Positions 10,659 to 53,340 of a DNA stretch of 63,155 nucleotides are shown here, piece after piece. Origin of the DNA: Perkinsus olseni (Eukaryota). The position numbers and the translations under genes are program-made. The stretch covers positions 1 through 63,155 of the forward strand of contig JABANN010000137.1 in the NCBI GenBank assembly GCA_013115125.1, in the 5' to 3' direction. Positions within the stretch are counted from its first letter, which is position 1. Every line of letters begins with the position of its first letter. The notes beneath the pieces are model-generated. The model searched no databases, had not been told where the DNA came from, and worked only from the letters and a program-made list of their open reading frames with translations.

Positions 10659-13921
<3,263 letters not shown>

Positions 13922-16581: not shown

Positions 16582-19500
16582 TCAGGCTCGTCCACTATGC
16601 AAATCTCGAAAAGTTCCACTTACCATTCTCGCGAAGGCGACGACAGAATTTCCAATAACGCTTTCCACGGCGACCCTAAACTTGATGCTCCCGGGCTCGA
16701 CCTCTGCTCCTCCTAGGATGTCGAGATATTTCCATGTTAGAGGCCCACCGTGGGGCCAACTAGTTTCGGACTCTTGCCCAGCGATCAGGTAACCGAGGAG
16801 CATACGGCGACATATGTCGACTAGCATCATGCCACGCTGCGTGAGCTGGGTCCTCGAAACGCCCTCTCTGATGCGCCTCCAGATGATATTTAGTTCATCA
16901 GGATTGTCAATAGTTGAACTAAGAACGTGGTATGATTATTGAGGATGGAGCATGCTTACTCTGGCAGGCCAATCTTGTACAAGCTGAAGTCACTCTTGAG
17001 TGTGAGGGAATACCGCGGTACTGTCCCGCCGGTCTGCCGCGTCTCGACAGTTTCGATGATGCATAAATCGAGGCTCTGACAGGAGCACGTGAGAGGCAGA
17101 AAGCTCACACGTTCAGTCCCACCTCGGGAAGAGTTTTTGTGTCCTTCGGCTTCCTGCCAAGCGGCGGGTTGGTGTAGGTCGCCATGATGTAGGCGGCCAG
17201 GCTTGGCGTTCGGACTTGATAATTCCCATCTGTTAGGGCATTCCACTTCCCTTCTCTAAACTCAGCCTCGATCTTTGCCGCTACGTGTTTTGCGAGTATC
17301 CCACTATCACTAGTCTTGGCCATCCACGCCCTCTGCAGGATGTCTGCTAATCTAGCCGGGCAAGTGAATGCTGGTGACACGGCTGAGTTAAACCTTGACT
17401 GCATAAACAGGAAGAGCAGTACTCCGTCTGCCCGCTGACGCGACGGTCAATGCGGCACGGAGACATCCTTGTTGACGATTGAGCAGAAGATTTTTCAGGT
17501 GTGTATCCGAGGGACCCGCGAAGCATCATTGCAAACACTCTACACCCATCAAGCTGCCTCTTCAACAGCATATTCACGAACACTCGCCGACATTCATAAA
17601 ACACACTAATCGACGAGAGGATAGTATCGAGTTTGGCTGTCATCACTCGGGGAGCCGATGAGATCCCCCGAATGGTGAAGGTGCCTCTATCAAAGAAAGC
17701 GGACTCATCGCTCACCCGGAGCCATAGGATACGGACGTGAAAATCGACCGAGCAGCACCAGTCAGAGGAGACAGGGTGGGGAGTGCCCCTTTTTATTGCG
17801 TCCTACGGTCCTAAGGCACGTCCTGACACATCTGACTTACTCGCCGTCTGTTATCATTCTCAGCCCAAAGACACCTCCAACGGCTTCTCGGTCCAACTCC
17901 ATGTAGTATCTTTTCCGAGGAGAATCCCATGTAGCTCGACGAGGCATATCCTGAATGAGCAGAAAAGAGCAGTTCCCGGAAGCTCTCCAGTAGTGTGTCT
18001 CCAACTGGCATGCGAGACCAAGAGAATCCCCGCGTTTGAAATCGGAAAGCGGATTCAAGGATCTTGACGCGGGACCTACGGGTCGTTCCTGCACAGCTCT
18101 CTCTGATTCCAGCGAGGCCTGTGCCATTCTAGACCCGTCTTTGATACGGAAACTATTTCGGGACTTCTGCTTGCCCGGCCGATAGATAATATCTTCCAAG
18201 TCTTCCCTTTGAGGGCTGAGCTCGTACTTGGTGCCTCGCACAGCGTTGCTGTAGTTCAGCACTGCCCTCAAATGATCGCAGATGGCGATACGACACAGTT
18301 GACTGTCGGTCACTTGACTGCGAGCATCGAGGACGACCATTGAAGGGTCGAAAAAACGCGTTAGTATCTGCTTCAGTTTCTCTGGGTACTCGCTGCTTAT
18401 GTCCGACTTGGCCCTGAGGGAGGGCAATGAGGGCATCATCGGTTCCTCGCGAGCTCACCTGAGTCGTCCTATCTTGTGGATTGTGAAGTCCTTCTTAAGT
18501 TGGAGTTGAAGAGTCCCGTAACGCTTGAGGCTCTCGGGCTTGAGATCTTCCATCTTCAGCACCTCACAGAGGGCGGGATCCTGATTTGAACCACCACATG
18601 TTGTTTTGCAAAAGATACATCGTCATCGACCTGTCGTCGATCTACCCTGCTCTCGGGAGCCCTTTTGATAGGTACCCTTCCTAGAGAATCGACATCTTCC
18701 CTCATCTTGAGGTCAACGAAGTCCTCCATAAGTGCCCCTATCAGTGTATCACCCCTCAGCACGAACATGGGTGACTTCGAGCGCGATCTCCAGCCCTCAG
18801 CAGATACCCCAAGTTCTTCCTCCACCTTCAGTTCCAGTAGCTTCGTCAGTTTACTCTGCAGTGGCTTCTTAGTCGCCCTCATCAGAGCGACGAGGTATCT
18901 CTGCAACTTGTGGAAGCACGTGTCGTCGAACGGTCTTCTCTTATCTGCTTTCGGGTTGCTTGCCAAGGAGGTGATTTCGAAGACTTTCGAACTGAAGCGG
19001 GGACGAGGGTACTTCAAGTAACGTTTCAGTGCGACATCGTTATTACGATGACTCCACTATCGGGTTTTTCAAGGACTTAACGGTGAGACTGAGCCGGGCC
19101 TCCTCTTCACGGTCTATGGCAAGGCGATAATCATATTGCTGGGTGGGCTCGGTGTTCAATATCCTTTCGGCCTCGCACACTGTATCCTGAGAAGAAGCGG
19201 CGTGTTTATCGATGATACTCATCGCTCCTGCGGGAGCGGCAGCACTCAGTGGCTTGAGCGAGACGTTTGCGCCCTCTGCCTTACCGTCGCAGATTCTATC
19301 CCATTCTCCCAGTTTGAAGCTATCATGCGTTCAAGGATCTCGAACAGGCCTTCACCACCTCGTATGACTTCCGGCGAATTTGTCGGGCCGAAGAAGCAGG
19401 GTCTCTGCTCTTTCACCGACATTGCCTGCGTTAGGACACCCAGAGGCGCTACCGGTAGCTTCAACGTGTCTCTCGCCTCCTCCGTTCGAACGTCCAAGCC

Positions 19501-20164
19501 TTCGGCCGATCGCCTTTCGTTGCGTGATATAGTGGCTTGCTCGAGCTGACCCGGTAGAGATTTCCCGCGGCGAGAGTCGAGTGTTCACTATCTCACGCGC
19601 TCCTCCCGAGCTGGACAAATACTCGTAACCAAGGCTTTCGTACGCCGCTATGGTCTGGCGCCACCTGGCTGATGGAGCCTTCGAAGAACTCCTATTACCG
19701 ACAGCAGCAGCAACGGCGGATACGTATTCCGGTGTTAAACCGAGGCGAGAGAAGGTCTTCCTACTCTCCGAGGTAGGAGGTACTGACCTGAGTTTTCGGA
19801 AGTAGGAGCAGGCGCTCGACTACGAGACGACGTTCTAAACACAGCTCCCACGACGAGTACAACAGTACTCGGGGGCACCGAGTCGATGAGGCAGCGACGA
19901 CGCGACCGATAAACAAGGATATACTTGAGCCTCCGGGCAACGCTCAGGTACATATCCCCTGCCATGTCGACGTAGGTGAACAAAAAATCCTCGTCCCTGG
20001 ACTTGTAAGAGGCCGTGCAGTTTCGCCATACCTCCTGCACGGGCGCCGAGGCCTACTATTTGAAGCTAGCGGAGCGACCGGCGACAATTTTTACGGCCTA
20101 CCGTTCGATTCGGTGTAGACGCTCCGACCAACGACGCTGTTACCGCGAGCAGTGATAGAAGCAT
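16582..20164 (-). CDS. Secreted modular-repeat family member P1 (shortened large class; centre degenerate or deleted)
   Basis: Signal exon MLLSLLAVTASLVGASTPNRT. Exons homologous to P2-P4 (QQYDYRL, QLKKDFTIHKI, RATWD..YYMEL..FGLRMITDG, CPARLADIL). Lacks about 2.4 kb of central modules present in P2. Confidence 0.65.
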
Positions 20165-20551
20165 TGAATAAAGGCAAAGTCTGCCTTGAGCACACTCCCC
20201 TACAACCCGATGATGAGGATAATGTACAACAATCAGCGGAATTGCCTCTGAACTCGGGCGTGGTCGAGCCAGAGAACAAAGACGAGCTGAACAGGTCAAG
20301 CCTGACGTCTCATACGACGTCGTTAGCTTTTGATCAACCATGCTCTGAAGGTCAGAGTCAGCGAATGGAAGATGATCCGCAACGCACTCAAATTGATGCC
20401 GATCCACTACGATATTAAATGGCTATAGCATGCTAACTCATGGCGGCGACTTCGAGTAGTGTTGGTTTTCACTGCAGACGCGGCCTGTACCACAGGCCCT
20501 GTAGGGATCCCACAGCAGGAAGACTATCGAACTGGTCGTGGAATCTGTGCT

Positions 20552-23500
20552 TCAATATGGCGTCGCGCCTTCTCTCCCCGAACAACACGAAAGGCTCATA
20601 GGTTGAAGACATGACACCGTAAAAACATCGCACATCTTATGGCATTTTTCGACGTTAGTGGGGCATGAAGAGCATCTTCTCAGCCTGAAAATTTTCGGGA
20701 AGCGCTTCACCCAACTCTGTCTTATTCTGCTTACTATTCCCGCGAAAACAGTGAGAGATTCCCCTATTGCAGTTTCTTCGTAAACTTTGAACTTGATGCT
20801 CCCCGGTTCAACTTCCGCTTGCCCCAGCAGCTTCAAATCATCCATGGTCAAACCCAAGTCCAATTGATATGCTTGCGTAGAGATGACGTAGCCGAAGAGC
20901 GCCCGGCCGCATATGTCGGTCGAATTGATATCACGACGGGGGAGGGAAGTTGGAACATGCTTCTTCATGCGGGTCCACAGGAGGTTGAGCTCCCCGGGCT
21001 CTTCGATTATCGAGCTGGGAAAAGTGGGATCATAGTCCACATGAGGGATAAGAGATGCTTACTCTGGCAGGCCAATCTTGTACAAGCTGAAGTCACTCTT
21101 GAGTGTGAGGGAATACCGCGGCACAGTCCCGCCGGCCTGCCGCGTCTCGACAGTTTCGATGATGCATAAATCGAGGCTCTGACAGGAGCACGTGATAGTC
21201 AAAAAACCAACACATTCAGCTTCACCTCAGGAAGTGTTTTTGTGTCCTTCGGTTCCCTGCCCAGCAGGGAGTTGGTATAGGTCGCCATGATGTAGGCGGC
21301 CAGGCTTGGCGTTCGGACTTGATAATTCCCATCTGTCAGGGCATTCCACTTCCCTTCTCTAAACTCAGCCTCGATCTTTGTCGCTACGTGTTTTGCGAGT
21401 ATCCCACTATCACTAGTCTTGGCCATCCACGCCCTCTGCAGGATGTCTGCTAATCTAGCCGGGCAAGTGAATGCTGGTGACACGGCTGAGTTAAACCTTG
21501 ACTGCATCAGCTCCGCTGTGACGTCGTGTGTAACGGGTGCCTCTGCCGTAGCTCTCGCAGGAGGCTCCCAAGATATGACGACGGTATCGTCCGGTGCCGA
21601 TTCGACCACGATCTGGTGGTCGACTTCAGACCTAGTTCGGGATTGTTCCATAAGAGTAAGTCTACAGCTTTGGTCCTGATAGAAAAGCGATCCGCTAGAA
21701 TAGAGACGCTACCGTGGCGGTCTCACCGAGGCGGTTGCTAGATCATGGAGGTTGCTGAGGGCCTCCGCGACTGGATGACCTTCATCAACGCGGAACAGCA
21801 CACCTTCGGCGTCGCCCACTTGAGCATCGTCGAGAGCAAGGGCCTTCAACCCCGCGTGTCGGCTCGTGTCTGCCTTGAGGGTTCGTTGCTGGGCGAAGGT
21901 CCTCGATGCGACGGTGAGATAATCGATAAGAGTCCTCTTGCAGAAGCGCACCGCCGCTGAGCCCTGCAGAGAGGTTCGAGCAACATCACCCAGCGGCGCC
22001 TTGGTGATGTGCTCCCGCAGCTTCGGTCGCCCTTGGCCATCACTGAGGGAGGAGGGGAGGGGTAACGAGAATGGACTCGTCGCTAGATGAAGATCTCACT
22101 ATTTGGGGCCTTTTATCCCGTGGATGAGGAAATCAGGGCTCAGAGACAGACTGATGGATGTCATATTTCCCTGCGCTACCTCTCCTCGCTTCACCATCGC
22201 TTCAACGCTGCATGTTGATGATGCCTGCATCATGCAGGAAACAATATAACTAGCGTAACGCGGCCCAGGAGGTGCTTCACTGTAGTTGCAGTTCTAGCTT
22301 CTCTATGGTATTCCCGATGTATACTGAGAGCCTTTGAAGCATGCACTGCGGACGTGTTCGACCCAACATTGCACCCAGTGGGCGCCGCTCACACTAGGAA
22401 GTGTCCCGAGAGGCATTAGACTGGCATGATCATCCCTCAGAAGTACGATATCAAGCCTCCTACGGCTACGGCAGCAGAGGAGGATCGGCCCTACCCATTC
22501 GTCGATGCCTGAGTCCAGTATTACAGACTGGTCGTCCAGAGCTTTCGCAACTTCATTGAGAGGCTTTGACGACTGTACGACTGACCACGTGAAGTCGGAC
22601 ATCTTCGTTAAACTGTCCATTATCTTGACGGCGAGTGTAGACTGTATGAGTCGGTATACGGGCAGGTCCCTGACTGGCTGTGTCCAGGCCTTAGGGTCCT
22701 CATACTCGGCAAGGAGGTATTCTGATACCCTCATCTCGAGGTTGTGATGATCGCCACCCCCGGCCTTCTTAACATCCTCAGACCGAACAAACTTCCAACC
22801 CCGCATGAGGTACTCTAGGAGGCGTCTATCGCAAGTATTCAGATTCTTATTAGCCCAATATTTGTCGCCCGGTACGGAGCGGATTTTCTTCAACATCTTG
22901 TCAAGCCTCCTCTCGTTGTCGAACGATGGAGCCCTAATGGAGACACATAGTCGGGATCTCTCGACAGCGGACGTGGCACAAGTCACTCACTCCTCAGATC
23001 CCACTCGCTGTCTCCGTTGTGCCAGTGTTGTGCTCCTCTCGCTGAGTATAATCCTGTTATCCGTGAAGACGGATAGGGCAAGCTCCCTCATCTCGCCTTC
23101 GGTGCTGCCTGTTGCTGAGACCCATGCAGCTTGACAAATAGGTTCGAGATCCTATCAGAAAACGGCCATCACAACACCAGGCCAGTCCCCTTCCCCTACC
23201 CGCAGCAAGAGGCCACCGTCGGGGTTCTCCTGCATCCTCGTCAGCCCTTGGGCGTGCATCCAGGGAAGCACAGTGCGGACCACATCGCTTCTGACCACGC
23301 CGAGATCTATCGACCCAAACCCGGCCCTATCCTCGAGTGACAATTTAGCACTGTTTTCGACCACCGACAGGATAGCAGCGAAGGAGGCCTTGGTGGTCTT
23401 TTCAACTCCCGCGTAAGGGGACGGCATATCAGCTAGAGTATCCCAGAGGTAGCAGGCGATAGAGAAAATACAGATTTCACGATCATTGATTCTAGGCTGG

Positions 23501-26500
23501 CTGCCTTGAGGCTGTTGTAGGCATCTGTTCTTAGCCTCTTCGTACGGCGTCTTCACCAACGGATACATGTCGGTCCTGAGTAAATAAAGAACGAGAATTT
23601 ATAAAGCCGCTCGCCCAGCATACGATGGTTAACGGCGAGAGGCTTATGAGAGCAACTTGCTCTCGACACGTTCGAAGGGCCTCATGGTTATCACTGGGGA
23701 TCAGCGAAGGGACAAGAGTACCATCATGCATTGGACTGATGTAACGGCGGAACTAATGAGGGCAAGTATGAACAATACATTTGTGAATGGTATCAGCGCT
23801 GTTGAGGAATGTCGTCACTGAAGTTTGAGCCTGGGACTATATTGGAAAGACTTTCCCCTCGAGATGGTCTCTGTGCCGAGGCATCAAGCGACACAGCTAT
23901 CACAGAGACTCTTTTGGAGGCGTTGATGACGTTACGAGTGGCTGTGTACCTACTCGCCGTCTGTTATCATCCTCAGCCCAAAGACGCTTCTATCGGCCTC
24001 TCGATCCAACTCCATGTAGTATCTTCTCCGCGACGAATCCCAGGTAGCTCGACAGGGCATATCCTGAATGAGCACGCATGATCGATTAGCCCCTCAGGTT
24101 TCTACAGAGACGATGTGGCTGGTAGCCGACTTAGCAACCGAATCAGACGAGATCCAGTTGCAAAGAGGCCGGTCCTACAGGGTGCTCTTTCGCGGCTCTC
24201 TCGAGCTCCAACAAGGCCTCCGCCATCTTTGATCCGTCCACCAACCGAAATTCGATCCGGGGGCCTTCCTCATCCGGCCAATGAGTAATGTCTTTCAGAT
24301 CGTTCCCTCTCGAGTCCAGGTGATAGTTGCTGCCCCTCACCGCGTTGCTGTACTTCAATACGGCCCTCAGATGGTCGTAAATGGCGATGCGGCAAAGATG
24401 GACGTCATTCACTTTACTGCCTTTTTTAACGGTTAACACGGAGGGCTCGAAAAATCGTCTCAGCTTCCACTTCAACCTTTCCGGATACTCATCGTCCATA
24501 CTCGACTTTGTCCTGCCGCAAGAGAATGGTTAATGACCATGGTATCCAGCAGGGGTCCTACCAGAGTCGATGTATCTTGTGTATTGTGAAATCTCGCTTC
24601 AGCTGTAATTCTAGAGCCCCTGGGTGTTTGTTACCCTCAGCGCTCGGATCCCCCCTGTGCATCACCTCACACAGTACCACGTCCTGATTGACTAACATCA
24701 TCACAATGAGTGCACACACCTCGATGACTTACCGTCTTTTCAGGATCTCCTCTGATCGGTATCCTCGCCAGAGGACCCACAGATCGCTTCATTTCAACAG
24801 CAACATAGTCCTCCATGATCGTTCCCACCTGGGTATCGCCCTTCATGACGAACACTGTTGCCTTGCTATCATCATTAGCCCGGGCCAGCTCTCCCTCAAC
24901 CCGCAGCTTCAGTAGGTTCATAAGCTTGCTTTGGAGCGGTCTCTTAGTGTCGTCCATCAGAGCGAACAAGTGTTCCTTCAATCTGTCGAAACATGTCTTG
25001 GCCGACCGCCCTTTCTTCTTGCTTGAATCGCTTGGGATCTCGAAGCTTTGAGAACTGAAGCCAAAATGGAGATCTCCAACCACGACCGAGAATGGCAAAA
25101 CAGAATGATCATAGCCGTTGAGCCGCTATTACGAAGATTGCAAAGTCGGTCTTCTCAGCGACGTCACGGTTAAGCTCATGCTGACGTTCCCCCCACTGTC
25201 TATAGTAAGACGAAAATCATATTGTTGGGTCGGCTCGATGTTGAATATCCTCACAGCCTCGCAGACTGTATCCTGAAAAATACCAAAATCTCATTTCTGA
25301 CTAACAAGCAACGACGAGTCCACGTCACAATGTCTACAACCATGGCCCTCAGTAGATTCTCGCTCGAAGTTTTCGAGCTCAAACTTATCATCATTTTCCC
25401 GACAAAAAGAAAAGAACATTGCGGCAGTCCTGCTCGCAGAGACCATCGCTGAGTACAATACCCGGACTCACCCGTTGAGATTTCAACCCGTTATGAGAAT
25501 CCGCGCTCGTCACTCTTTCTACGAGCTCTAACAGGCCCTTCGCGCAGTCCTCACCATTTTCCAAGGCCGACAAATCAAAGACATCACCGCTCTGCTTTTC
25601 CAACGACGAAACCGCAGCTTTGAGCGCTTTCGGTGGCTCCTTCAGTTTATCCTGATTCCCACCTCCTCGAGGCTTTCGATCAAGTCGGGTCGGCAGAGAC
25701 GATAGTCTTTTACGGTCGAGAGGAAAGAGTTGATTATTGATTGTAGCCCGCGCCCCTCCGTCGTTCGTAGAGTACAGGTACCCTAGGCCTAGATAGGCTG
25801 CTATGGTTCCTTGGCATCTCGCTGTTTTCGACTTGGGGATATCAGGATCGTCAGCGAAGCCGCCGAAAATGCGGTCCGGCGTCATGCCAAGTTGGAGGAA
25901 GACGTCTAAGGCAGCGGGGGTCAGGCGGATAACTGACCTGAATCATGAAGGACAGGGATCCCTCAGAGGCCGGAGTGGTGGTATCAAAGGTTGATCATGG
26001 CACACCACGGTAGCAGCAACAGTCGCAATACAGCGGAAGACGCCATCAAGTGCAAGGGCCGATAAAGCTGTTTAGTGGGAAAATCCGAGAGCTCCGGTCA
26101 ATGGAAGGCCAGAATTGTGATGAACCCAGAAGCGACACCCGTACCGTGGCGGTGTGTGACGAGCAAGAACGAGAAGGGACCGAAGACTCACTGATCTTTT
26201 GTTGCAACACTCAGAAAGGTTTCGCCCCATTCCTCGACGAAGAGGAAGGAGTATTTGCTCTCTTTGCCTTTGAAAACGGCAGTACAGCTCGGAGGCGCCT
26301 TCCCCAGCTTCTTAAGCTAAACAACGACCGCCATCGCCTCACACAGCGCTCAGAATGAGGCTTCCTAGTGGACCATTTCCCAATGAGCACTCAGTTAGTG
26401 TCCAGCCAAGAATAGCAACAACTTGGCGGACGTTATTCCTAATATCAACTGTACTGTTGTCGCCGACAACACCGTTGTCACGGCAGTATTCACAACCGGA

Positions 26501-27127
26501 CTCCCGGGTATGACGGACGCACATTCGACAACTTCTCCTGTGCGACTCCGTCTATGAGCTGATTGGACTCCGGTGTTTCTCTATGCTTTTACTGTCACAT
26601 TTTCAAGCTGGTGCAACTACTGTCAAATTTGGCTGCTCACTGCTATTTTGAGCCAAAGACAAACCGACGTGGGAGAGACGAGGGGGGACTCGTCAAAGTT
26701 GGTACTGCCAATATTGATTTTGAGTAGTTGCAACTTCCAGGTTGGGCTCAACTGAAGTTGGATTGCACACGTTGAGAACCTTTTGTTTTCCTTGACGATG
26801 ACTCTAGAATTCTCTGCTGAAAACTAGCCGACCTTGCGCAAGAAAGGGCGCAGATAATACTCCACGCTCTTTCGATAAGCGTGGCCGCGAGAAATCAACG
26901 CTTCACGTCGCTTTTCTTCACGGGCTTCGAGGCAGGTGTTGCTCCATGAAATCCAGGCTTGAAATGAGGCGAATACGAATCGCCTATCTTTGCCGTCATA
27001 AAGGCGTATTTACGAAGATCGGGACTACAGCCTAACCTGTTTCATGAGCACTCACCTTTTTCGAGGTGGAAAGAGACGCGACGGCCAAGGTTGCTGATAT
27101 CGCCAGCAGGAGAGCTAAAGCATGCAT
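20552..27127 (-). CDS. Secreted modular-repeat family member P2 (large class, about 8 modules)
   Basis: Signal exon MHALALLLAISATLAVASLSTSKK|GTGAGT is inferred to splice in phase 0 to LKKLGKAPPSCTAVF near 26317. Exons are colinear with P3 and P4. Both ends are approximate. Confidence 0.7.
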
Positions 27128-33500: not shown

Positions 33501-33703
33501 TAATCCGTCACTCTACTGGCCTGAGGGAGAGCATCAACATCACCTACTACAACCATCGGCAAGCACGACGAGAGGGAACGCGAGAATAAGGTCCATACCC
33601 GTGATGACCCCGATAGAGTAGCTATCGCTGATTGAAGCTGTACAGCTGACAGTGGCAGCAGCAGCAGCAGCAGGAGGAGGAGATAGTACACCGAGCCATG
33701 CAT
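27533..33703 (-). CDS. Secreted modular-repeat family member P3 (large class, about 8 modules)
   Basis: Signal MHGSVYYLLLLLLLLLPLSA. Colinear homologous exons include CIEGVAAYMGLGY, CRMALYHHI, CIFSIACYLW, CERRLLEYLMRGW, CKRTLIDYL, CPSRLADIL and CGRTLVDYL. Confidence 0.72.
32373..32489. repeat. Tandem repeat, 50-nt unit x about 2.3, intronic in P3
   Basis: TACTGTCACCCT(T/C)TGATCCTGTGGTGACACGTCCCCAGTATA(C/T)TACAGTC starts at 32373 and 32423, with a partial copy at 32473. Confidence 0.9.
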
Positions 33704-39900: not shown

Positions 39901-40140
39901 TTGGTGTTGTAAATTGCGGAACAGCTGCGGTCCCTCCTGCCCCACCCAATCTGAGAGAGGGAGGGACATTTCCATTTGGTGTTTGACTCGAGCATGGCTA
40001 TGTAGTGATACTGGATTCGCCAAGGCTCAACATGTGATGACTCGAACGAACTTGACCTCTCTGAGGAGTCTTACCAATCGTCCGAGGAATGATGCCCGGA
40101 CTACTAATGATGATCCAGCAAAGTAGAGGGGGACACGCAT
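33958..40140 (-). CDS. Secreted modular-repeat family member P4 (large class, about 8 modules)
   Basis: Exon 1 MRVPLYFAGSSLVVRASFLGRL|GTAAG. Colinear exons include CLEAMAAHL, CFQKLRENL, CRFAIQSHL, CLISVTCYLW, CQKNLFEYLMQGW, CKGALFEYL, CRARLVDIL and CQQTLFDYL. Confidence 0.72.
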
Positions 40141-40630: not shown

Positions 40631-43530
40631 CTACACGCTCACGTCTCCAGGTTTGTTTCTTCCTCTCACATGTCGTCTGGCGAAGAGTTCAAGCACCTCC
40701 ATGGCCTTGGCGAGACGACTTCTCGCGGAAACTTGGAAAGCGTTCTCTCTTGACTGCCACATGGCGCCCGGCTCGAAAATGATGGCTGGAATCGGGATTG
40801 GGAAATTGTTCTTGTTGCATTTGTCATAAACCTCTTTGCCGAAGGGCCAGACAGTCATGGTCTCGCCGTTGAAGGTTCCCTCGGAACTACGAGACCCTTC
40901 CAAACAGATGGCTTCCAAGTAGCTGCCAAAAGCGTTCTTGGCAATGTCCTCGGAGGTTTTTGGTTCCTCCTGGGAATGATCTCCCTTTATGCCAGAGAGT
41001 TCACTGATGGCGGCGGTCATGCCCTTCCACCTTATCGGCCTACATAAGTGTGAAGAGTTCTGGAAGCACCACTGGGCAGCAGGACACTCACATGCCAGGT
41101 AGACGAATACGATGAATCGTGAAGTCCCTGTTGAGGGCCATGGAGAGATCTTTCCCCTCCATTTCGAGATACCAAAGAGACTCCTGAAAAAGAGAGCGCA
41201 TAGCCGTGGCATTGGCGAGATCGGTGACCTTACCGGCATATCCGGAAGTTTGAGAGGCTCGTCTTTTTCAGGAAACACTTTCTTGGCGAACTTGGTGAGA
41301 ACATCACTCCCCAAGGATGATGGCATCGCATATGAATTTTTACCGCCGAATGATATCCACTTATCGTTCGAGTCTAACTCCAGCTGCCATGAGAACTCCT
41401 GTTGAACAGAACTCTCATTCAGGGCGCCTCCCTCCTTTGGTCGGAACCTCCCCGAGGCATAGTTCCAGGCATACTTGAGGACGTCTCGCATGGTCGCCTT
41501 ACAGTCGGACGGCTGAGACCTCGGAAGGCCGTAAGGCATGCCGCTCCGCTCAAGGCTCGTCGTAGCTGTAATCTTGCGCTTCCTGAAGGCCGCAAAGGGC
41601 AGGGTCAGGATGATAACCAAGTGTAATAAGACGAGACCGCCCAGAAAGAATCAGAGTACCGGATCACTGCTTCGGAGTAAGGCCAGAAGGGCACTGCGAA
41701 TAAAAGACAAGACCCACGCCAATTTTTCCCGTCGCCGAGTGGAAGAATTCCCGCACAGGAAGAGCTTGCCGCTACGCTGACGCTTCGACCCGGATCAACA
41801 ACATCATAAAACCTCAAGTGACTCTACTTAGATCACGAAACGGGTGCAGAGTTCTCCATTTTTGAGGAACACTCTGTAACAGCAGTAATGGCGAGAATAT
41901 CAAAACCTCACGTTGGTCCCTTGTCTCCCTCGAGCACGTTATAATAAAGCTTCAAATCTTCTCCCTTCAAATCCAGTTCGTAAAAAACCTTCTCATCCGC
42001 AGAAGTGGTGAAGACATGGAACACCCGGCACTTGAAGCCCTGAAGGAAGGTATCGGCGTCGTGATACGATCACCCGCGGAGGGAGGACCAGTTGAGAGTA
42101 TACCTGAGGTTGCAGTAGGGACTCGTAGACTTGCAGACTCTTAGATTGGCGGATCTCCTCGGGAGTTGGCACACGAGGGCGTGCTCTCGGCAGAGGTGAC
42201 CTAGGTTCTTCAGGCGACGGCGATCTGGACCTTGACTTCTCGATGAGCGCAGGGCTGGTAGATTGAAGGAGCTCGTCAGGCGTCGGCAAACGAGCACGTG
42301 ATCCCGGAGAAGGTGATCGAGACTTGGATCCGGACGGCGACGGGGACCTGGACCTCATTGTGGACGCAGGGTTCTTCGACTGAGAGTCTTCAGTAGGCGT
42401 TGAAGGTGGCGACTTAGTAACCCTCGGCTTTGGAACGGGTTTCGTGGCATCGGGCTGGGCGGCGATGGTATCCTGAGCAAAGGAAGCTGCAGGGCGAATA
42501 GAAGGAAAAGATCGTTACCAGGCCCAGCTGGTTCGTTGCAGAGCGGGAGCTCTTCTTTGGGGGAATGGGAGGTGTAACGCCCTCGACTGAGACCTACGAA
42601 AGGAGATGCCGTAGGTGGGAGGTTGTTGATTTCATCAGGGAATTCAATGACCGTCTTCACTTGGAATTTCCATTCACGATGATCATCGGCAGGCGGAGAG
42701 AGTAGAGGAATTCAGCACGAAGAGTGGCGACCTCAATCTCGAACAATAAGCCGCGAGTCGTGTAACACCAACGCTCTAACGCTTCTCACCTCAATGTCCT
42801 CCCAGTTGGGCTTGCGTCCCTGCTTGAGAGGGAGCGAACGACCATCTTCTTCATCAGGCTGTTCGCGTTCAGTCGGCTGGGCATCAGACTGTTCTTCAGC
42901 GTCCTCTCCCAACTGCTCAGTCAACTTCTGTTTCCTCTCATTCAGTTTCTTCATCAACTCCTCACTTTGACCGTTCATAACTTGGACGCCATTCGGACTC
43001 ACCTGAAGCGTGTTGGCGTTTCCCACTGCACCTCATTCGCTGAGAAGGCTCGCCAAGGAGAGTCCCACTTAGCCAGTATCAGAGAGACTTACAGGACTGC
43101 TTGGAGCAGAGGCCGTGTCAGCTTCAGATGTCGGAGGGCTTGCATGTACCGGTAACCGGAAGTTTGCGGGCTGAGAACGACTTTATATACAAAACCACCC
43201 AGCGGAAGAGCCATGAATCACGGCCCATGATCTGGGAAGCAACGGGAGGCACGAAACCAATGAGTTCATTCTGCGGTAAAAACCGAAGGGGTCGGGGACC
43301 AAGCTAGAGTACTTACTAGGAAAGGCTTCGGCGGCGGGTCCCCGCTCTGCTGATCTGCTCTTCGGTAAACCCTTGTCTTCGTCGGGACGGGAGGGGGCGG
43401 CTTCTGAAAGAGCAGGAGAGCAGCAGAGTCTGGTGAGCACAGCCTTCCTATTATTGTGACCTACCCCACTCTGCAGGCCTGCCACTGCATGCATACCGTG
43501 GAATAGGATAGTTGCTCTGATGGCTCGCAT
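40631..43530 (-). CDS. Secreted family member P5: long Ser/Pro/Arg-rich linker plus 2 modules
   Basis: Exon 1 MRAIRATILFHGMHAVAGLQSG. RSRSPSP repeats follow, then FKCRVFH..YEL, CKATMRDVLKYAW and KNAFGSYLEAIC. The 3' end is approximate. Confidence 0.62.
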
Positions 43531-44262
43531 TGGTATCAATGGAGGGACAACAGCTATAGCTGATGATACTGATATGAAGAGAATACCCCGAAGATTCATT
43601 CGACTACGAGATGGTCGGACGATTGCATGCAACCAAAGACTCGGCTTAGACGAGAGACGGATAGAGCGCATGCCAGAGGCCCTCAAGATCAGCAAACTTC
43701 CTCGAATGAGGCTGCACTGAGATGGCATTGAAGAAGAGTACGAAGGGGAGGATGAGGTCTCGCAGCCCTCTGGGCTTCGCATCTCTCAACAATTTTGAGT
43801 GCGAGCGAATCATGCGATAACAGTCGGCGGAGGGCCTCGGCCGACTGCTACCAGACACACATAGTTCGGCAATGACGAGGGAGAGGGTAGAGGAGGGACT
43901 GTGCGCAGCGGAAGGTCTACTGGCGTCTGTGTGATGAGGCTGAGCACCAAGGAAATCCATCATGACCGGAACCCGTCAGTGTTAGAAACTCAGCAGAGAG
44001 ATTGAACAACAGCGAATCATATACGACCTCCAGCATGACACAAGCAGGCAACAACGAAGGCAACGTTCGCTCAAGTAGGCCTGAGCGAAGGACCCTCACA
44101 GGATGGATGAAAGAGGTAATGCGCTGTGATTGTTGGAGGTAGGGATTGAGGACGCTAGAGGCTTAATCGTCATTCACTCGCTTCCTCTTTCGAATCAGAG
44201 AAAGCTTCAGACTGCTGCTGCGGCTGTCCTCTTTGATTACCGATGAGCTTCCGAGGGGCAAC

Positions 44263-45106
44263 CTAGGAAGGAGCTGATTCCAGAATGGCTCGGCAACTTA
44301 CCGGCTCATCAGGGCACTCGTGGATCTCTTCCAGGGCCCTGGCCAACTCGGAACCTTCGCGGATCTCGAACCGCCCTCCTGTGCCTCTGATGTCCCCTTT
44401 ACAGCCGTCAGCGCAGGGACTGGATTCTGATTCTCCCTCTTCACGCAACGCGCGGGAGGCCATCAAGTGTCCGACCAAGGTTTGCTTGCATAGGGCATCC
44501 CTAGCTTCCTCCGGACTGTCATCAGGGGAAAAGTCGAGGATATCAGACTCGTTGACGACGGGCCAGATCAGCGGTTTCACAAGTCTCTGGGAGCAACGCA
44601 TTTCGTCCCTGATGAGAACAGAGCTCCCAACGGTCTCCTCCAATAACGTTCTCTCACAGTGTCCGCTTCAAAGTCCAGTGAAAAGTTGAATCGCCGGTAA
44701 AGTCGAGGGTGAGGGTCTGCTTGGGGGCCGACACATCTGGTACAGCAAACGAGCACTGTAAACTGGTCTGAGAATTACCGAGGCGGTGCGAAATCGTTGA
44801 GAGGCTCTCACGCCGGAGTCTCGGTCCTCCTCTTTCATCTTACGTCTCGCGTAGACGCGAAATATGTTCCTCGCCGTGGAACAGCCTTCAGGGTTCCGCG
44901 AGCATAGCTCGACCTGAAGTGGGGTTGTCGCAGGGCACACCAGCAAAGTCCGCATCCACTACGCGTTTACAGTTCAACGGCATTCCTCGGCACACAACTC
45001 CATTCGAAAACGAACACACTCCTCCCTGGGCGTGCGTTACCATTCGTCCGAGGAAGGATGACTGGGCCACTACTGGCAATACAGCCAAGTAGAGTGGGGT
45101 ACGCAT
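44263..45106 (-). CDS. Secreted family member P6 (short; partial A module plus a B module)
   Basis: Exon 1 MRTPLYLAVLPVVAQSSFLGRM|GTAAC splices in phase 0 to VELCSRNP..VYARRKMK. CKQTLVGHLMA..FEIREGSELARAL follows. Confidence 0.58.
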
Positions 45107-45563
45107 TCGAGAACAATAGGGACCAACTGAGGTTAATCACTGAGGTTAATCAATGGTGTTTCCTATGATAATTCTATCAGGGAATGAGGAGCCAAAACCG
45201 CCTGAGAAGAGTCCGTGGGGAATGGGACGACCGAAGGGCCGATGATGAGAACCGCAATCCGGCCAACACCGACAACATCATCATCACAAACACCACGTTT
45301 ACACCAGAGCAGCGATGGTAGTAGTAGTAGGCACTCTGTGATCTCCATCATCACAGGGCAGCTCCATCGCTCACGGCATGCCATTCTTACAGGAGCAGGG
45401 CGATGGAATTACCATCATCGTGCGGGACAGCAAGATGAGACGGAGGCTCGAGAAGGAAACAGAGCAGTCGAGCGCGAGGCGTCAGAAGACTATGGGTTTG
45501 CAGTCGTCTCTCCTCTCACGCGTCTTACACCAAAAACCATATGAATTCGCAAATCATCATTTG

Positions 45564-47589
45564 TCACGACCCGTACTCGGTTTGCTGTCCCACGTGTCTC
45601 CTAGCAAAGAGTTCGAGTATTTCCATCACTCCAGCGAACGGACTGCCCTCGGGAACTTTGAAAGTGAATTCTTCTTCTTCTTCGTTCAAGGCACCACGCT
45701 CGAAAATCTTCGTAGTAATAGAAAGTGGAATAGAGCTCCGAGAGCATTTGTCATAACTCTCTTCGCCAAAAGGCCAGACAGTCACGGTCTCGCCGTCGAC
45801 CATTTCTTCGGAGCTACGAGTGGCCTTCAAGCAGATGGACTCCAAGTAAATTTAGTTGCCATAAGCGACCCGGAAAATATCCTTCGACCTTCGAGGTTTG
45901 TCTTTGTAAAACGTCTTCTTGAGCTGAGAAAGATGGCCGATGGCGGCGAGCATACCTTCCCACGGCGTGGACCTACGATGCTGCAATCAAAGTCGAAGAT
46001 GCCAGGAATGACGGAAAGGCTCACATGCCAGGTAGAGAAATATGATGAATCGTAAACTCCCTGTTGAGGACCATGGAGAGATCTTTGCCCTCCATCTCGA
46101 GGTACCGGAGAGTCTCCTGAAGAAGGGAACGCATGGCCGTGGCATTGGCGATAGACGACTGTACCAATCTGAATGGGAGCTCAACGGGTTCGTTCCCTTC
46201 AGGAATCACTTTCTTGGCGAACTTGGTGAGAACATCACTCCCCAAGGATGATGGCATCGCATATGAATTTTTACCGCCGAATGATATCCACTTATCGTTC
46301 GAGTCTAACTCCAGCTGCCATGAGAACTCCTGTTGAACCGAACTCTCATTCAGGGCGCCTCCCTCCTTTGGTCGGAACCTCCCCGAGGCATAGTTCCAGG
46401 CATACTTGAGGACCTCTCGCATGGTCGCCTTACAGTCGGACGGCTGAGACTTCGGAAGGTCGTCAGGCATGCCGCTCCGCTCAAGGCTTTCCGTAAGGAG
46501 AATCTTGCGCCTGATGAACGTAACAGGGGGAACGTAGCAACACAAGATCGTTGAAGTGAACGCATGGAGGCAATCAACTTGATTGAATCAAGATATACCT
46601 TCACACTGCCGCAAAGGACTCACGTGAGATCTGTGTCACCCTTGTTGACCGAATAATACAGCTTCACGTTCCTGCCCCTCAGACTGAGCTCATACACGAC
46701 ATCGAAACCACCGGCAGTGGTGAATGCGTGAAATACTCGGCACTTGAAGCCCTGAAGTCTCAGGTGTGTATCAGTAATAAAGTAGTAAGAGACGTTGGAA
46801 GGAGATAGACTGAGATTGAGGGCTTACCTGGGGTTGAAGTAGAGGTCCGAGGGCTAGCAGACTCTTAGGCAGCCCGTGGAGTTCGGCAGGGGTTTGGCAA
46901 GCGAGGCCTTCGGGAGGGTAACAAATGCCTCGCTGCAGGTGCTGATACAGACCTGGGCCTTCCACCACTCACGGAGCCAGCCGACTGAAGATCTTGGTAA
47001 GGCGAGGACGACGGCTACCTCGTTATCCTTTCAAAGTTGGTGGCGTCCGAGTCCTAACGAAGAAAAGAGCAGTTAAGAGTCTTCGGCGAGAGAGGAAGCT
47101 CATCCAGTCCGCCAGATTGTACCCAGATGGAGTGAGCCCGTTCCTCGAGATCGGGGCTGATGCACCTTCTGGCGGGGACTGAGGGAATGCAGAAGGCACT
47201 ACTATTGCTGAAAGCCGCATCCTCCGAGAGCCGAGGGACACACGAAGCATGTAGCACAACAGCGAAGTGCCCCTAGACACTCAAGCGCTGCATCAGACCA
47301 AGGAAGCTGCACTATAGGTGGTGTTTGTGGTGTAAGTCAGCTTGCTCGCGATAAGGAGAGGTCAGAAACGTTCCTCGGAAGAAAGGGACGCACTTTATTT
47401 GGATTGTGGGGTGGCCGAGGCGACCTCCGTTGAGCTCTGCTATCTGTTGGTAGAGGAAGAGGAGGCCTCTGAAGAAGTAAGGGGAGGGTTGGTATCGACA
47501 ATGGGACCATCGGCATAATCTACCCCACTCTGCAGGCCTGCCACTGCATGTATACCGTGGAAAAGGATAGTTGCTCTGATGACACGCAT
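45564..47589 (-). CDS. Secreted family member P7 (paralog of P5)
   Basis: Exon 1 MRVIRATILFHGIHAVAGLQSG; then FKCRVFHAF..YELSL, CKATMREVLKYAW, LNREFTIHHI and FKVPEGSPFA. Confidence 0.62.
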
Positions 47590-48239
47590 TGGTATCAATG
47601 GAGAGGCAACAACTATAGCTGATTAAGGAGCGCTTTAGGAAGACTCGTTTAAGTCCGGGAGTAGCGTGGAAGGTCTTCGGTTGTTAGGATGCGACCAAAT
47701 CTCCAGGCAGGCGCTCTACCGGAGGCTCTCATTTTTGCGATCTACCTTCCTAATGCCGCCTGAAAGCTTTGCGAAGGTCGGATGCAGGAGTCTGACCGCG
47801 AAGACTCTTGCCAGGAGGGCGGCATTCCATAGTTGCCAGCGAAAGGCACAGTGTTCTCGATGTACACCACGGAAAGAGCAATACAAAAGCAACTGAAGCA
47901 ACTAACAGAATCTTGAAAGCGGTCAAGAAAGCAGGCGGGAAGCCCTCGAATGGCTACGCTCCGCCCCGTTCCTCTTAGCATTGATAAGACAAGAGAGAGA
48001 GACAGAACAACAACGCTTGACACACAACCTCTAACATGTCACAACGGTAAGATGGAGGAGGGCTATTCGGCTTGATAGACATGAGAAGAGTGTAGCGCAG
48101 AATGCTTGGCCTGCTAGTCTGTAAGTACCTAAGCCACGGCAGAATGGCAGAAAAGCCAATACAGGATGAGGCCCGCGGCCCTCTGTAGTTTCTGATGAAC
48201 TTACCGCGGGTGGCCTAGCGTAGCACATGAAGTTGAAAC

Positions 48240-49642
48240 TCACATGTCTCGAGGACTTACCTCACTATAGATGTAGGCTTCAATCGTCTTGACGACCTCA
48301 GCTACTGCGGACCCTTCGCGGATCGTGAACCACCCTCCTTCGCCGGCTATGTCCTTCTTGCAGCCATCAGCAGCGCAGGGACTGGCTGCATCTCTCTCCT
48401 CAGTACGGGAGGCGCGGAAGGCCATCAAGAATTCAATGAAGGCTTGCTTGCATAGGGTATCAGTAACCTCCTTTGGACTAGCATCAGATGAGGGGTCGGG
48501 GATACCGGAGACGCCGGTGGCTGGCCATAGCTCTTTCAGCGGGCGTATATACTTGTCCAAGGACCCTAATTTCTTCCTGAGAGGAGCAAAACCCTCGCGA
48601 ATCCCGCAAACACTGAGGCTCGATTACAGTGCGTGAGAACGGACTGAGTGTAGCGTGAAATCCATGGCGATGCCGAGGGTGAGCGGAGTTGGCTTGCGGA
48701 CAGCAGAGTTGTCCTCTACGCTGAAAGTGCACTGTAGAGGCGCCTGAACACAGCGAAAATGGTAGTAGCAGTGGACATGAAATTCTTCCAACCTCCGGTC
48801 GTTCTTGGTTTTTCATCTTCCGTTTAATGTAAGTAACGAGAAGATGCCTCATGAATGATTCGTCAGGGAGCAGAAGGCTTCTCGCGCCATCGTTGGTGGT
48901 AGAGTTGTTCTCCCAGAGGTCTTTGAACTCACTCTCCAGTCGTCTGATGAGCTTCCCTTTCAAGTGGCGATAGATGCTCTCGTCCACATCCCTCCTGCGC
49001 GAGACGATGTGACGGGAGCCCTCATACATCCCGTTCAGCAGGTATTGATAGCAATCGGTGGAGGAGGAAAGATTTTGGAAAATGATTCCCTTGGAGCTCC
49101 TGACAACAGCAACAATCAGTGACAGAGGACCGTGAAGGGGCAGTTACGAGTAATCCGAGAAGTAATAAGCCTTCACATCATCCGCCTGGCTGGTCGTGTT
49201 CGTTTTCACTGACAACTCATAGACTTCGTTCCAAGGGAAGGGCGACCAGGAGTAAACCCTGCATTTCGACCCCTGGCAGCAGCACACAGCAACCACACTT
49301 CCCACGAATCAGCCCCGAGCCGTGGCCTACTGTAGATAGATGAGTAGAAAGAGGACGCTGATCTGGCAAGGGTACGGGCATCTTCAAGCGTGATCGCTGT
49401 ACTTCGGCGGGCTTCCTCGTCGGGAAAGGCGCGTATTCTCTGTCCTACTCAAAAGGAGCGATAAACCTACTTCGAGTACTCAGAGTGTCGCAAGGAAAGA
49501 CCAGAGCTGCAGCGATGATGATGAAGACCACACGCTAATGGAGCGTATCATGCGTAGTCAGGCGAGTGCTCACCTCGTAGGCAGCAGTCGAGCTGACTGA
49601 TTGCGGTAGAAGCGGTAGCAGCAGAGCGGCGGTCCAATACAT
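48240..49642 (-). CDS. Secreted family member P8 (small class, 2 modules)
   Basis: Signal exon MYWTAALLLPLLPQSVSSTAAYE|GTGAG; then CRVYSW..VYELSV, CYQYLLNGM, IAMDFTLHSV and CKQAFIEFLMAFRA..FTIREGS. Confidence 0.68.
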
Positions 49643-49847: not shown

Positions 49848-51491
49848 TCATTCACGCTTTTTCCTCCAACAACATCGAAAGATAGACGGCTGCCTGGGCG
49901 TTCGCTCTCTCCTTTGAATGTCTGAATGTATCACCTGAGGGCTGCCGATGGGACGTCGCGTGTTAGCCTCGGGTGGGTGGCCACTTACCACCATACCATT
50001 ACTGTCTGGCTTTAGCACCCAGTCTAATGTCCCACTCGGTTCGATAACCTCTGTGGTTCGTGATGAGGCTCTAGGACTAGCCTGAGATGCGGTATCAGCT
50101 AGAGAGAAGATACCCTGAGAACGCACCCTGCCGAGGAGGTATCTTTCAATTCGCTTCAGCTCGTCGGCGGCCTTGGAGCCTTTCCGGAGCGAAAACATCC
50201 CGTGCCGGCCGAGAATCTCTCCTTTGCAGCCAGCAGCGCAGGGACTGGCCACGACTGTCTTATCATCGCGGAACGCGCGGAAAGCCATCAAGTATTCGAC
50301 GAAGGCTTGCTTGCATAGGGCATCAGTAACTCTCCTCGGACTTGCATTCGATGAGGGGTCGGGGATACCGGAGTCGCCGGTGGCTGGCCATAACTCTCTC
50401 AGTGCATCGACTCGTGCTTTCAGGTCTGGGAGTTCGGCGAACTCAGTTCGCTCCTGGAGGAAGCGAGCCCTCCATAGGTCCCCCCCTGACGCGAGTCACC
50501 TACAATGCATCTGAACTGACTGAGTTTAGTGTTGTGAAATCCCTAGCAATGGCAAGCCTGAGCATCTGCCTAGAAGTAACGTCTTCTTGAACGCCGAAGG
50601 AACACAGTAGACCGGCCTGATAGGAGCTCACTGGCTATGACAAGCGGAACCTGATGATTAGCCGCACTCACCTTCGGCGGCTCATTCCACATCTGTCGTT
50701 CAACGTACGTAACGAGTACATACTTCAGCAAGGAATTGTCAGGAAGTACCAGAGACTTCGTACGGCCGATAGTGGTGACACTCGTCCTCCATAAGTGGGC
50801 GAAATCGCTCTTCAATTCTCTGTGAATCTTGGGTTTCAAGTGTTGATAAATGGCTTCACTCTGGTTGGTATCGCGGGGGAAGATGTACCGAGGCACCTCG
50901 TTCTCCATGGCGGAGAGTAAGTAGTGGTAACAGTCAACCTTGGGAGGCAGATTTCTCTCGACACGACCCTTTTCGCATCTGACCAAGTACAGTCGGCGAC
51001 TGCATGTTGGTCAAAGAGAGCAAAGATCGCAGGTTCTCAGTTACTTTCTGTCGGAGGAGTGGTAAATCTTGGCCTCATTCTTGCCAGTATTCGGATTTGG
51101 TTCCACGGAGAGTTCGTAAACTTCCTCCTTAGGGTCCTGGGACCAGGAATATACTCTGCACTTCGCCCCCTGATAGAGAATGTAGTCCCTACAGGGCAAG
51201 GCTGACGCGGCGACTACTTCAGAGAGAAGATGAGTTGGAGCCCGCTGGCCTTGAGATGACGACAAGGAGGCATCAGGCGGGGGCTGCTTTCTACTCGAGG
51301 TACGTTCCTTCGATGATGCGCTCTGCTTTATGTCCACATTCTGCACAAACACGGACGAAGTCGATTTTTTCCAATGACTCAGATGAAGACTCGGCTGTAC
51401 AAGCTGTCTGGCGAGTGCTCACCTCGTAGGCGGCGGCCGAGCTGACTGATTGCGGTAGGAGCAGTAGTAGCAAGGCTGTCGTACAATACAT
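49848..51491 (-). CDS. Secreted family member P9 (small class, 2 modules)
   Basis: Signal exon MYCTTALLLLLLPQSVSSAAAYE; then CRVYSW..VYELSV, CYHYLLSAM, IARDFTTL and CKQAFVEYLMAFRA..FSLRKGS. The 3' end is approximate. Confidence 0.68.
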
Positions 51492-51887
51492 AACGGGGAG
51501 TGTAGGGGGATACTATCCAGAGAGGTGCATCGAGGAATGCAGCAGGCGGAACGATGTCGTATCCTAGGGCTTTGTCATGTCTACTAGACACTGGTATTAG
51601 TAACACAGCACGAGAGCATAACAACAACAAAGAGCACACACGTTGCACCAAGGAACAGCAGCCATACACCTTACATCATCTCTACAGCGATATTGAAAGG
51701 GGAAAGCTGCGGAAGCTCAGTCTGCTGGTGAGTACAGGAGAGCAAAGCGAGACTGAGTTTAGTAGGACAGGGAGTAAAACAGGGCCTGTCCTGGTGCCTC
51801 CACCTTATTTATTGTTGGCCCCCCTTCTTCCCGGCCTTGGCGGAACTGGCGGAGGCTCTTCTGTCGTCTCCGGTGAGCTGGTGGGCT

Positions 51888-53340
51888 TTATCTGAAGGTG
51901 GCATCAACGGGTGAGAGTTGAAGAGCTCTTTGTGAGCTCATCACCTTTCTGAGGAGATGTCTTTCAATATCCCTAAGTACGGCGGCCATCTTCGAGGTAC
52001 GGCGGACTTCGAACAACCCTCCATCGCCGATAATGTCATTCCTCACATTTACAGTAAGAGGCTCTGTAGGTCCGGCAGCACGGTAGGCGCGGAAGGTCAT
52101 CAAGTACTCGACGAAGGCTTGCTCGCATAGGGTATCAGTGACTCGCCTCGGACTATCATCATATGAGGGGTCGGGGATACCAGAGACGCCGGTGGCTGGC
52201 GGGAGTAGGCTCAAAGCATGCACATGGCCCTCCAAGTCTGGGATCCCGCTTCTGAAGATAGACACACCATTGCAGAGATCCTCAAGTGAAGGCTCCTTAC
52301 AGTGCGGGAGAGCTGATGGAGTGCAGACTGAAGTCGGTGGCTATGCCGAGTGTGAGCATCGGCTCCGAACGATCCTCGGCACCCACGCCAAAGGTGCACT
52401 TCAACCCAGCCTGAAATGTGGTGCTACCTTCACGATCGCGATGGACGAGAGCATCTAACCTTAGAAGGACCCCTATCCCTCATCTTGCGATCAATATAGG
52501 AGACCAGTACGTGCTTGGTCACTGACCTTGGTCACTGACCAATGGTCAGAGTGCCATAAGGTAGCAGAACGGACGTCGTGCTGCCATCGATGGTGCGCTC
52601 ATCCCATAACTCTTTAAATTCGCTGTAGACCTGTCTTTGAGCCTTCGGCTTCAATTGCTGATAAATGCTCTCCGCCGTTCCGGCGCTGTTATCAGGGCGG
52701 AGAGCGCGAGTAGCGTAAGCCTCCATCGTGGACAACAGATGCTGACCACAATAATCAGTAGAATTCAGGCCTCGAACAACGACGCCTTTCAAGCTCCTGA
52801 GAATACACGACGTTTTAAGACGATAAAAAACTTGAGCTAACTTATACCCATCCTCGGAAGTGTAGTAAACCTTGGCGTCGTCCTGCCCGCTGGTGACGTT
52901 CGGTTTTATAGAGAGCTCATAGACTTCTCTCTTGGGGTATTGTGACCAGTGGTAAATTCTGCACTCGGATCCCTACCGAGCTCGCGGATATCTTCCTAGG
53001 GTCAACTTAAGATCCGTGCCTACCGTAGATAGGTAGTTGGAGGGGGCCCGCTGGCGTTGTACGGGCACGGCAATATCAAGCGGAGACTGTTGTTTTTTCT
53101 TGGAAGGCTTCTTCCTCATCGGGAATGCGGTATATCTCTCACTATCATCCTGAGCAAACGACAGCGCTGTCCTCAGTGCTCAATTGAATACTCTAGGGGA
53201 GAAGATCAATAAGGTAGTGATAAAGGTCCAGGCTAATGGAGCGTATCATGCGTAGTCAGGCGAGTGCTCACCTCGTAGGCTGCGCCCGAGCTGACTGATT
53301 GCGGTAGAAGCAGTAGCAGGAGAGCGGTGGTCCAATACAT
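51888..53340 (-). pseudogene. Secreted family member P10 (small class), probably disabled by a 27-nt insertion carrying an in-frame TGA
   Basis: Signal exon MYWTTALLLLLLPQSVSSGAAYE and modules like P8/P9. LLPYGTLT|IGQ*PRSVT|KHVLVSYIDRKM interrupts the segment homologous to P8 LLPDESFMRHLLVTYIKRKM. Confidence 0.6.

Follow-up and report, generated by a model that had tools for sequence, protein, structure and literature searches.

The window analyzed here is a 63,155-nt stretch of Perkinsus olseni DNA, to which all coordinates refer. It carries an array of ten co-oriented multi-exon paralogues, G1–G10, on the minus strand; the array runs from 16,582, where the lowest gene has its stop codon, to 53,340, where the highest has its ATG. 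The family formed by these genes is real and, as far as the literature was searched, undescribed; it is a modular, probably secreted repeat family of a parasite, and the results support its description as a lineage-restricted repeat scaffold that was built by duplication and has no known Pfam domain. An earlier note on this DNA had claimed ten co-oriented genes within the same limits, as well as a lineage-specific scaffold grown by module duplication. Ten gene models could be drawn between that stop and that ATG, and the second claim is borne out by the restriction of all 15 true profile matches to Perkinsus, by symmetric exon phases, and by a confident structural model of an A-B pair of units.

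Gene map and the exon-pair unit

In an all-versus-all BLASTP comparison of 1,676 six-frame open reading frames (ORFs), 127 minus–minus pairs were found at E ≤ 1e-3, nearly all of them within the array. Gene models were drawn from exon cores, splice scoring, and public gene models. G2, G3, and G4 are open across 16–17 exons with canonical splice sites (1,359–1,377 codons) and consist of a signal exon followed by units in the order N-A-B-N'-A-B-A-B; G5 and G7–G10 encode a single A-B pair after a Pro-, Ser-, or Lys-rich leader, and G6 encodes one B unit only. The same layout had been read earlier for the genes then called P2–P4 and for P5 and P7–P10, respectively. The features of the array are as follows:

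G1, 16582..20164, minus strand: signal exon and N-A-B-N'(beta) ... A(helix remnant)-B; a damaged eight-unit gene
G2, 20552..27127, minus strand: signal exon (27,127–27,056) and N-A-B-N'-A-B-A-B; 16 exons, 1,377 codons, open
G2 units 7–8 (A-B pair), 20702..21675, minus strand: the counterpart from another isolate (part of P0028) was the folding target
G3, 27533..33703, minus strand: signal exon and eight units; 16 exons, 1,359 codons, open
G4, 33958..40140, minus strand: weakly hydrophobic first exon and eight units; 17 exons and an open frame of 1,368 codons; every phase follows the 0/2 alternation
G5, 40631..43530, minus strand: first exon, long Pro/Ser/acidic leader across several exons, one A-B pair; B unit lacking both Cys
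G6, 44170..45106, minus strand: signal exon related to that of G4, short leader, single B unit, acidic tail
G7, 45564..47589, minus strand: paralogue of G5 with a single A-B pair; this sequence has an in-frame stop at 45,854
G8, 48164..49642, minus strand: signal exon and basic/Pro leader before a single A-B pair; open, with an uncertain 3' end
G9, 49935..51491, minus strand: signal exon, leader, one A-B pair; 3' end uncertain
G10, 51805..53340, minus strand: signal exon and Lys-rich leader, then a single A-B pair and a Pro-rich tail; this sequence has an in-frame stop at 52,534

One exon of the array matched P. olseni hypothetical proteins at 85–95% identity. Public models P0010 and P0029 start from the same first exon as G2, and G3 maps exon by exon onto records P0001–P0003 (about 77–100% for most exons). 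Corresponding public records were also found for G4 (P0013, P0009, and P0035), G5 (P0015, 586 amino acids (aa), and P0046, 610 aa), G6 (P0014 and P0045), and G8 (P0008 and P0023). Models P0008, P0030, P0037, P0042, P0047, and P0049 join neighboring array genes across signal exons, with gene order kept in other isolates; such fusions are probably mis-joined models.

The repeat unit is a symmetric exon pair, in which a phase-0 boundary is followed by a beta exon, a phase-2 intron, a helix exon, and again a phase-0 boundary. When donors and acceptors were scored from RNA-supported introns with any phase allowed, the best-scoring splice pair was of phase 2 at 36 of the 38 beta-to-helix junctions and of phase 0 at 27 of the 30 helix-to-beta junctions, a pattern alike in N, A, B, and N' units. 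The hand-chosen exon table, drawn with the phase rule in view, gave phase 2 in 38/38 and phase 0 in 29/30 cases. The comparison set, 12 RNA-supported introns of one flanking housekeeping gene, was distributed 4/3/5 among phases 0/1/2. It should be noted that paralogous junctions are not independent and amount in the long genes to about eight (beta-to-helix) and seven (helix-to-beta) distinct positions. Because the exon pair is bounded by phase-0 introns, it can be copied in frame.

A Cys in strand 1 and a Cys in the helix are both present in 36 of the 40 units (31 detected by regular expression and five more by eye). Both are missing together from the B unit of G5 and that of G7, and loss of a single Cys is confined to two units of the damaged G1. 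Thus, the claim of the earlier note that each beta exon opens with Cys describes the usual case, the departures being one unit of G1 and the B unit of both G5 and G7; moreover, G2 and G3 encode unit 7 in a single fused exon. All four B-unit peptides quoted there (QLKKDFTIHKI, LKSDFSLYKI, LNREFTIHHI, and IAMDFTLHSV) are present, and among 23 B units, the four defined positions of L-x-L-x-x-D-F are kept in 19, 19, 19, and 21, and those of the late F-x-h-x-x-G-S in 21, 14, and 14; the two Glu of the A-unit motif K[IV]E.E are kept in 11 and 15 of 18 A units. Across units, the conserved columns comprise core hydrophobic residues, the two Cys, a turn Asp (B), and two Glu (A); no catalytic set common to A and B units was found among them. 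The two conserved Cys presumably form an intra-domain disulfide.

Relationships, fold, and distribution of the units

The earlier note had derived all units from one module and had suggested a per-module profile comparison, which was carried out. B units at four positions aligned with one another at an HHalign probability of 82–97% over 68–131 columns, the reversed controls giving no more than 4% off the diagonal and up to 20% for self-reversals. Among the A-unit groups, two pairs reached 51–62%, and unit 2 gave no more than 2% against the other A groups; an A profile built without unit 5 nevertheless placed all five unit-5 sequences above the maximum of 372 decoys. The alignment of the A half with the B half, which spans 57 columns between the Cys helix and the final strand-helix, had an E-value of 0.0033, compared with 0.69 for the reversed control. 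N and N' units gave no more than 4% against other unit groups. Consequently, at the level of profile comparison, the B units are shown to be one module with one common ancestor, the A units are likely to be one module, and the case for A and B being the same module is marginal; N and N' are only tentatively assigned to the module, by exon phase and the Cys pattern. The proposal of a single module therefore stands firmly for B, weakly among A units, and marginally between A and B, and it did not extend by this comparison to unit 2 or to N and N'. We infer that A, B, N, and N' descend from one remote ancestor. A further observation concerns the P. chesapeaki record P0011, in which a tail (residues about 1,340–1,824) is fused to an eight-unit model and shows by eye a Cys-strand ... 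Cys-helix repeat; neither the A profile nor the B profile placed its units above decoys, and the tail is perhaps a more divergent relative.

The A-B pair was modeled with AlphaFold2 from a pooled 33-row alignment (mean predicted local distance difference test (pLDDT) 84, predicted template modeling score 0.81, no stretch under 50). The order of elements is nearly the same in the two halves: three strands (four in A) come first, a helix, the Cys helix, and one more helix follow, and two short strands lead to the terminal helix. Each half thus has four helices beside a small sheet, with five to six strands per unit, and one Cys lies in strand 1 and the other in the main helix. The A rows and B rows of the alignment occupied separate slots, bar a few stray fragments, so that the likeness of the halves in the model was not forced. 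According to this model, the A-B pair is predicted to be one compact two-domain block, each domain being of about 130–150 aa; the beta exon supplies a three- or four-stranded sheet, and the helix exon supplies helices followed by a strand or hairpin late in the unit and by the terminal helix. The model of a whole P. chesapeaki chain was poor (mean pLDDT 45) except for units 3 and 8.

In agreement with the earlier note, which had recognized no known domain, no Pfam family was found above the cut-off in 3 + 12 + 14 array queries. None of eight proteins matched NCBIfam, the ESM Atlas returned no usable match for two array parts, and the PDB sequence search gave no match with alignment A1 and one at E = 1 with alignment A6. 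Some records are named "Sphingosine kinase 2" or "Protein kinase domain-containing" in the databases; these names lack Pfam support and were rejected. RNase H-like or ASKHA proteins made up many of the weak Foldseek rows (E = 0.18–1 and 0.25–0.77), and a three-strand meander opens both halves of the model, as would suit a very divergent two-lobed enzyme or pseudo-enzyme of that type; secreted apicomplexan nucleoside triphosphate diphosphohydrolases are an example. We regard this interpretation as very improbable, since those rows had a TM-score of 0.15 or less by query and a root-mean-square deviation above 12 Å, no phosphate-binding (phosphate-loop) or acidic catalytic set is conserved across units, and the single-unit G6 and the odd N units misfit a fixed two-lobed design.

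An exhaustive HMMER search of 1.84 billion representatives with the B-helix profile gave 17 matches, namely, 13 from P. olseni, two from P. chesapeaki, and two (P0016 and P0019) that were dropped as unrelated tandem-repeat proteins matched through summed short stretches; all 15 true matches were thus from Perkinsus. A second profile search gave ten matches, all from P. olseni. No P. marinus protein was among the matches listed, by which absence from that species is not shown. The two P. chesapeaki models have near-neighbor locus numbers, the same unit order including the eight-unit design, and about 27–37% identity. About a dozen genes of the family were seen, not hundreds. In addition, P0020, a distant paralogue from P. 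olseni outside the window, has about four units, the last of which is a clear B unit (40.7 bits), and the family therefore extends beyond the array.

In trees of 24 B and 20 A units, the units grouped separately for every position, whichever gene or species they came from. The clustering by position required four changes, which is the minimum, compared with 14.0 (B) and 12.1 (A) after shuffling; the trees left out N units, and long branches meet in the A tree. This grouping indicates that the order of units was already set when P. olseni and P. chesapeaki diverged and that the genes were then multiplied whole. Only the damaged G1 joins parts of non-adjacent units. Most pairs of paralogues share only 38–54% identity.

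Secretion, isolate differences, and function

The first exons of seven of the ten genes lie at or above the 95th hydrophobicity percentile of 329 ATG-started 22-mers, and none of the ten contains Asp or Glu within the first 20 residues. In ten records, no hydrophobic 19-mer above 1.49 was found past residue 30, and no transmembrane segment or glycosylphosphatidylinositol (GPI)-like tail was detected. The reading that we favor, if tentatively and at slightly under an even chance, is that the array encodes a Perkinsus-specific family of soluble, secreted, probably disulfide-stabilized binding scaffolds that act outside cells. The confinement of conservation to the core and the Cys, with no shared catalytic set, argues for binding scaffolds with variable surfaces. 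In evolutionary terms, the exon pair can duplicate in frame by virtue of its flanking phase-0 introns, the order of units was settled before the two species parted, and whole genes then multiplied in tandem, with conversion-like tracts and isolate-specific breaks, in a birth-and-death process. An intra-domain disulfide between the two conserved Cys would place the work of these proteins in an oxidizing space, which may be the host fluid, the parasitophorous vacuole, or the parasite surface through a partner; there, the variable surfaces could engage mollusc proteins or glycans in adhesion, as decoys, or in the inhibition of immune factors, in a manner comparable to that of the Plasmodium 6-Cys A/B pairs. 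A more far-reaching version, which we hold with less assurance and regard as possible rather than probable, is that the unit has an alpha/beta disulfide fold not solved to date and was expanded by symmetric exon-pair duplication into a host-interface family, a convergent perkinsozoan counterpart of 6-Cys/SRS with eight-unit and one-pair members, in which isolate-specific loss tracks host adaptation.

Several results weigh against these proposals. The call of secretion rests on a hydrophobicity heuristic applied to sequence, and three genes, G4, G5, and G7, have first exons at only the 71st–81st percentile; the signal-peptide-like first exon that had been ascribed to every gene is well marked in seven of the ten and weak in these three. 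The Pro-rich, Ser/Arg-Pro, and basic leaders of the short genes would equally suit a cytosolic role. The ratio of nonsynonymous to synonymous substitution rates (dN/dS) between paralogues, estimated from locally aligned cores near saturation, was 0.23–0.55 in 10 of 11 comparisons (one was saturated), which shows purifying, not diversifying, selection. As regards a single module, only two of 21 A units exceeded the decoys with the B profile, no B unit did so with the A profile, none of the ten N/N' units exceeded the decoy maximum with either profile, and the models of N and N' were not confident (N' at pLDDT under 50).

The leaders bear most directly on the alternative that these are modular effectors delivered into host cells, secreted from apical organelles or across the vacuole and acting in the hemocyte cytosol, where disordered leaders would carry short binding motifs and the A-B pair would bind a host protein; this is most plausible for the short genes. 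The Lys-rich leader and PPPVPPRP tail of G10 and the long Pro/Ser-Pro leader of G5 with its PxxP words, which we take to resemble SH3 ligands and nuclear signals, fit such a role, as does the loss of both Cys from the B unit of G5 and G7; isolate-specific gene breakage, which is present here, is typical of effector arrays. On the other hand, the Cys pair is kept in the great majority of units, an RxLR-like word occurs in one of eight records checked and is missing from the copy of that gene in the window, and unit order is fixed, unlike that of the chimeric LWY effectors as characterized in the accessible part of bioRxiv 10.1101/2023.05.05.539533. Overall, we consider delivery into host cells unlikely.

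Soluble, anchor-free repeat proteins with an order fixed in two species and under purifying selection would also be expected if the products were structural or recognition proteins of the parasite itself (cell wall, hypnospore or zoospore coat, or cell–cell fusion), with repeats forming rods or lattices and the host taking no part in their diversification. A disulfide-linked wall protein of P. atlanticus is said to exist, and the literature search for it found no text. The low identity of most paralogues and the breakage of four of the ten genes would be unusual for essential wall components, and this role seems doubtful to us.

The broken genes, which the earlier note had missed, are G1, G7, G9, and G10. 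G1 has a frame break near 19,500–19,570 and lacks its middle units between about 17,840 and 17,400; records from other isolates hold these middle units (P0007, P0021, and P0022) and read across the frame break (P0030). The stop of G7 at 45,854 is absent from the other-isolate record P0042, and that of G10 at 52,534 from P0049. G9 shows a frame break near 50,440 when the splice pattern of the other isolates' records is applied, and P0006, P0008, and P0024 read through this site. All four break sites are therefore read through in records of other isolates, in which gene order is kept. With four of ten genes broken and G6 truncated, the array might be taken for a largely decaying relic. We think this very unlikely, given that G2–G4 are open over 16–17 exons with canonical splice sites, dN/dS is well under 1, the breaks are read through elsewhere, and an orthologous design exists in P. 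chesapeaki. Short local duplications are found near some of the gene breaks. Tracts of identity far above the rest of the genes concerned were observed between G1 and G2 (16,960–17,400 vs. 21,063–21,490, 96%) and between G5 and G7 (41,234–41,582 vs. 46,165–46,510, 89%), and a near-identical stretch lies in the unit-5 exon of G2 and G3 (22,600–22,800 vs. 29,470–29,680); these tracts are consistent with gene conversion.

The window as a whole is intron-rich eukaryotic DNA of about 52% G+C. The flanks of the array (4,373–15,400 and 58,400–59,900) carry ordinary genes, namely, two RING-finger genes and genes for an Era-like GTPase, Rcd1, MsrB/SelR, and a zinc-knuckle protein, together with what is, from its motifs, presumably a CDC48-like ATPase. 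One RNA run matches the flanking genes at 99% or better, with spliced contigs and GT..AG introns of 45–59 nt; its listed cover over 17.1–29.7 kb is a depth of 0.9 in one bin, and no RNA record was listed for 33.9–43.8 kb, neither of which carries evidence on expression. On the minus strand, short ORFs with a hydrophobic signal-like start (40,355–40,486 and 45,166–45,354) were noted shortly upstream of where G4 and G6 have their first exons; they are possibly small secreted peptides or extra first exons. Introns of G3 contain a 50-bp tandem duplication (32,373–32,489) and an AT-richer segment (about 29,830–29,950), which is matched by loose-ended RNA contigs and is probably a dispersed repeat. 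Outside the array, a 21-bp unit is repeated 8.7 times at 55,914–56,095 and reads as PGPVSVD-like or PPIQGQG-like according to the strand.

Comparison with known systems

Perkinsus kills farmed clams, oysters, and abalone and is placed close to the apicomplexans, near the root of the branch from which dinoflagellates arose. No described host-interface protein family of this kind was found for Perkinsus in the searches made. Literature searches yielded no description of the array family, in a coverage that did not take in the P. olseni/P. chesapeaki genome paper, and the accessible parts of PMC2868825 and PMC8678459 contained nothing relevant to it. A defined, foldable, and probably secreted family with a predicted A-B pair could supply antigens and baits with which to probe mollusc immunity, and the array is a target for structure determination as well as a clean case of exon-pair module expansion. 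When the introns on either side of a module share one phase (0-0), the module duplicates in frame, and expansion of symmetric exons is a feature of secreted proteins; the module described here differs in spanning two exons, with a phase-2 intron between them, and is not a described domain.

The analogy with the oomycete (L)WY effectors, which the earlier note had drawn, is weaker than it appeared. A role as effectors at the interface with the host is plausible. According to the accessible part of bioRxiv 10.1101/2023.05.05.539533, the (L)WY RXLR effectors such as PSR2 are alpha-helical bundles following the RXLR motif, number about 300 in five genomes, are often chimeric, and act in host cells. 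Both families are pathogen proteins, secreted in the one case and probably so in the other, composed of structurally conserved, sequence-variable tandem units. However, the unit of the array is alpha/beta and not all-alpha, has a conserved Cys pair, and corresponds to one exon pair; there is no conserved RxLR (an RxLR-like word in one of eight records), the order of units is fixed instead of chimeric, and about a dozen genes are in view compared with about 300.

A nearer parallel is offered by the Plasmodium 6-Cys (s48/45) proteins. As set out in the accessible part of PMC9309271, these have a signal sequence and 1–14 domains, often arranged as tandem A/B pairs, with small two-domain and large multi-domain members. 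The domain is a disulfide-stabilized beta-sandwich with up to six Cys (C1-C2, C3-C6, and C4-C5), degenerate domains with fewer Cys occur, and many members are GPI-anchored, some having no anchor of their own (PMC9309271). So far as these sources go, the array family resembles Plasmodium 6-Cys and Toxoplasma SRS in belonging to an alveolate parasite and in its tandem A/B pairs, its small and large members, its degenerate domains, and, probably, its stabilization by disulfides; A-B pairs are present in the array genes, and a signal sequence is indicated by hydrophobicity only, strongly in seven of the ten. It differs in that the unit is alpha/beta and not a beta-sandwich, two Cys are conserved per unit and not up to six, no anchor was seen in ten records, as against the GPI anchor of many 6-Cys members, and neither Pfam s48/45 nor SAG was matched. 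Thus, the array family, which is not a member of any family tested, would by analogy be organized like the A/B pairs of the Plasmodium 6-Cys proteins, and these appear to be a closer match than the LWY effectors.

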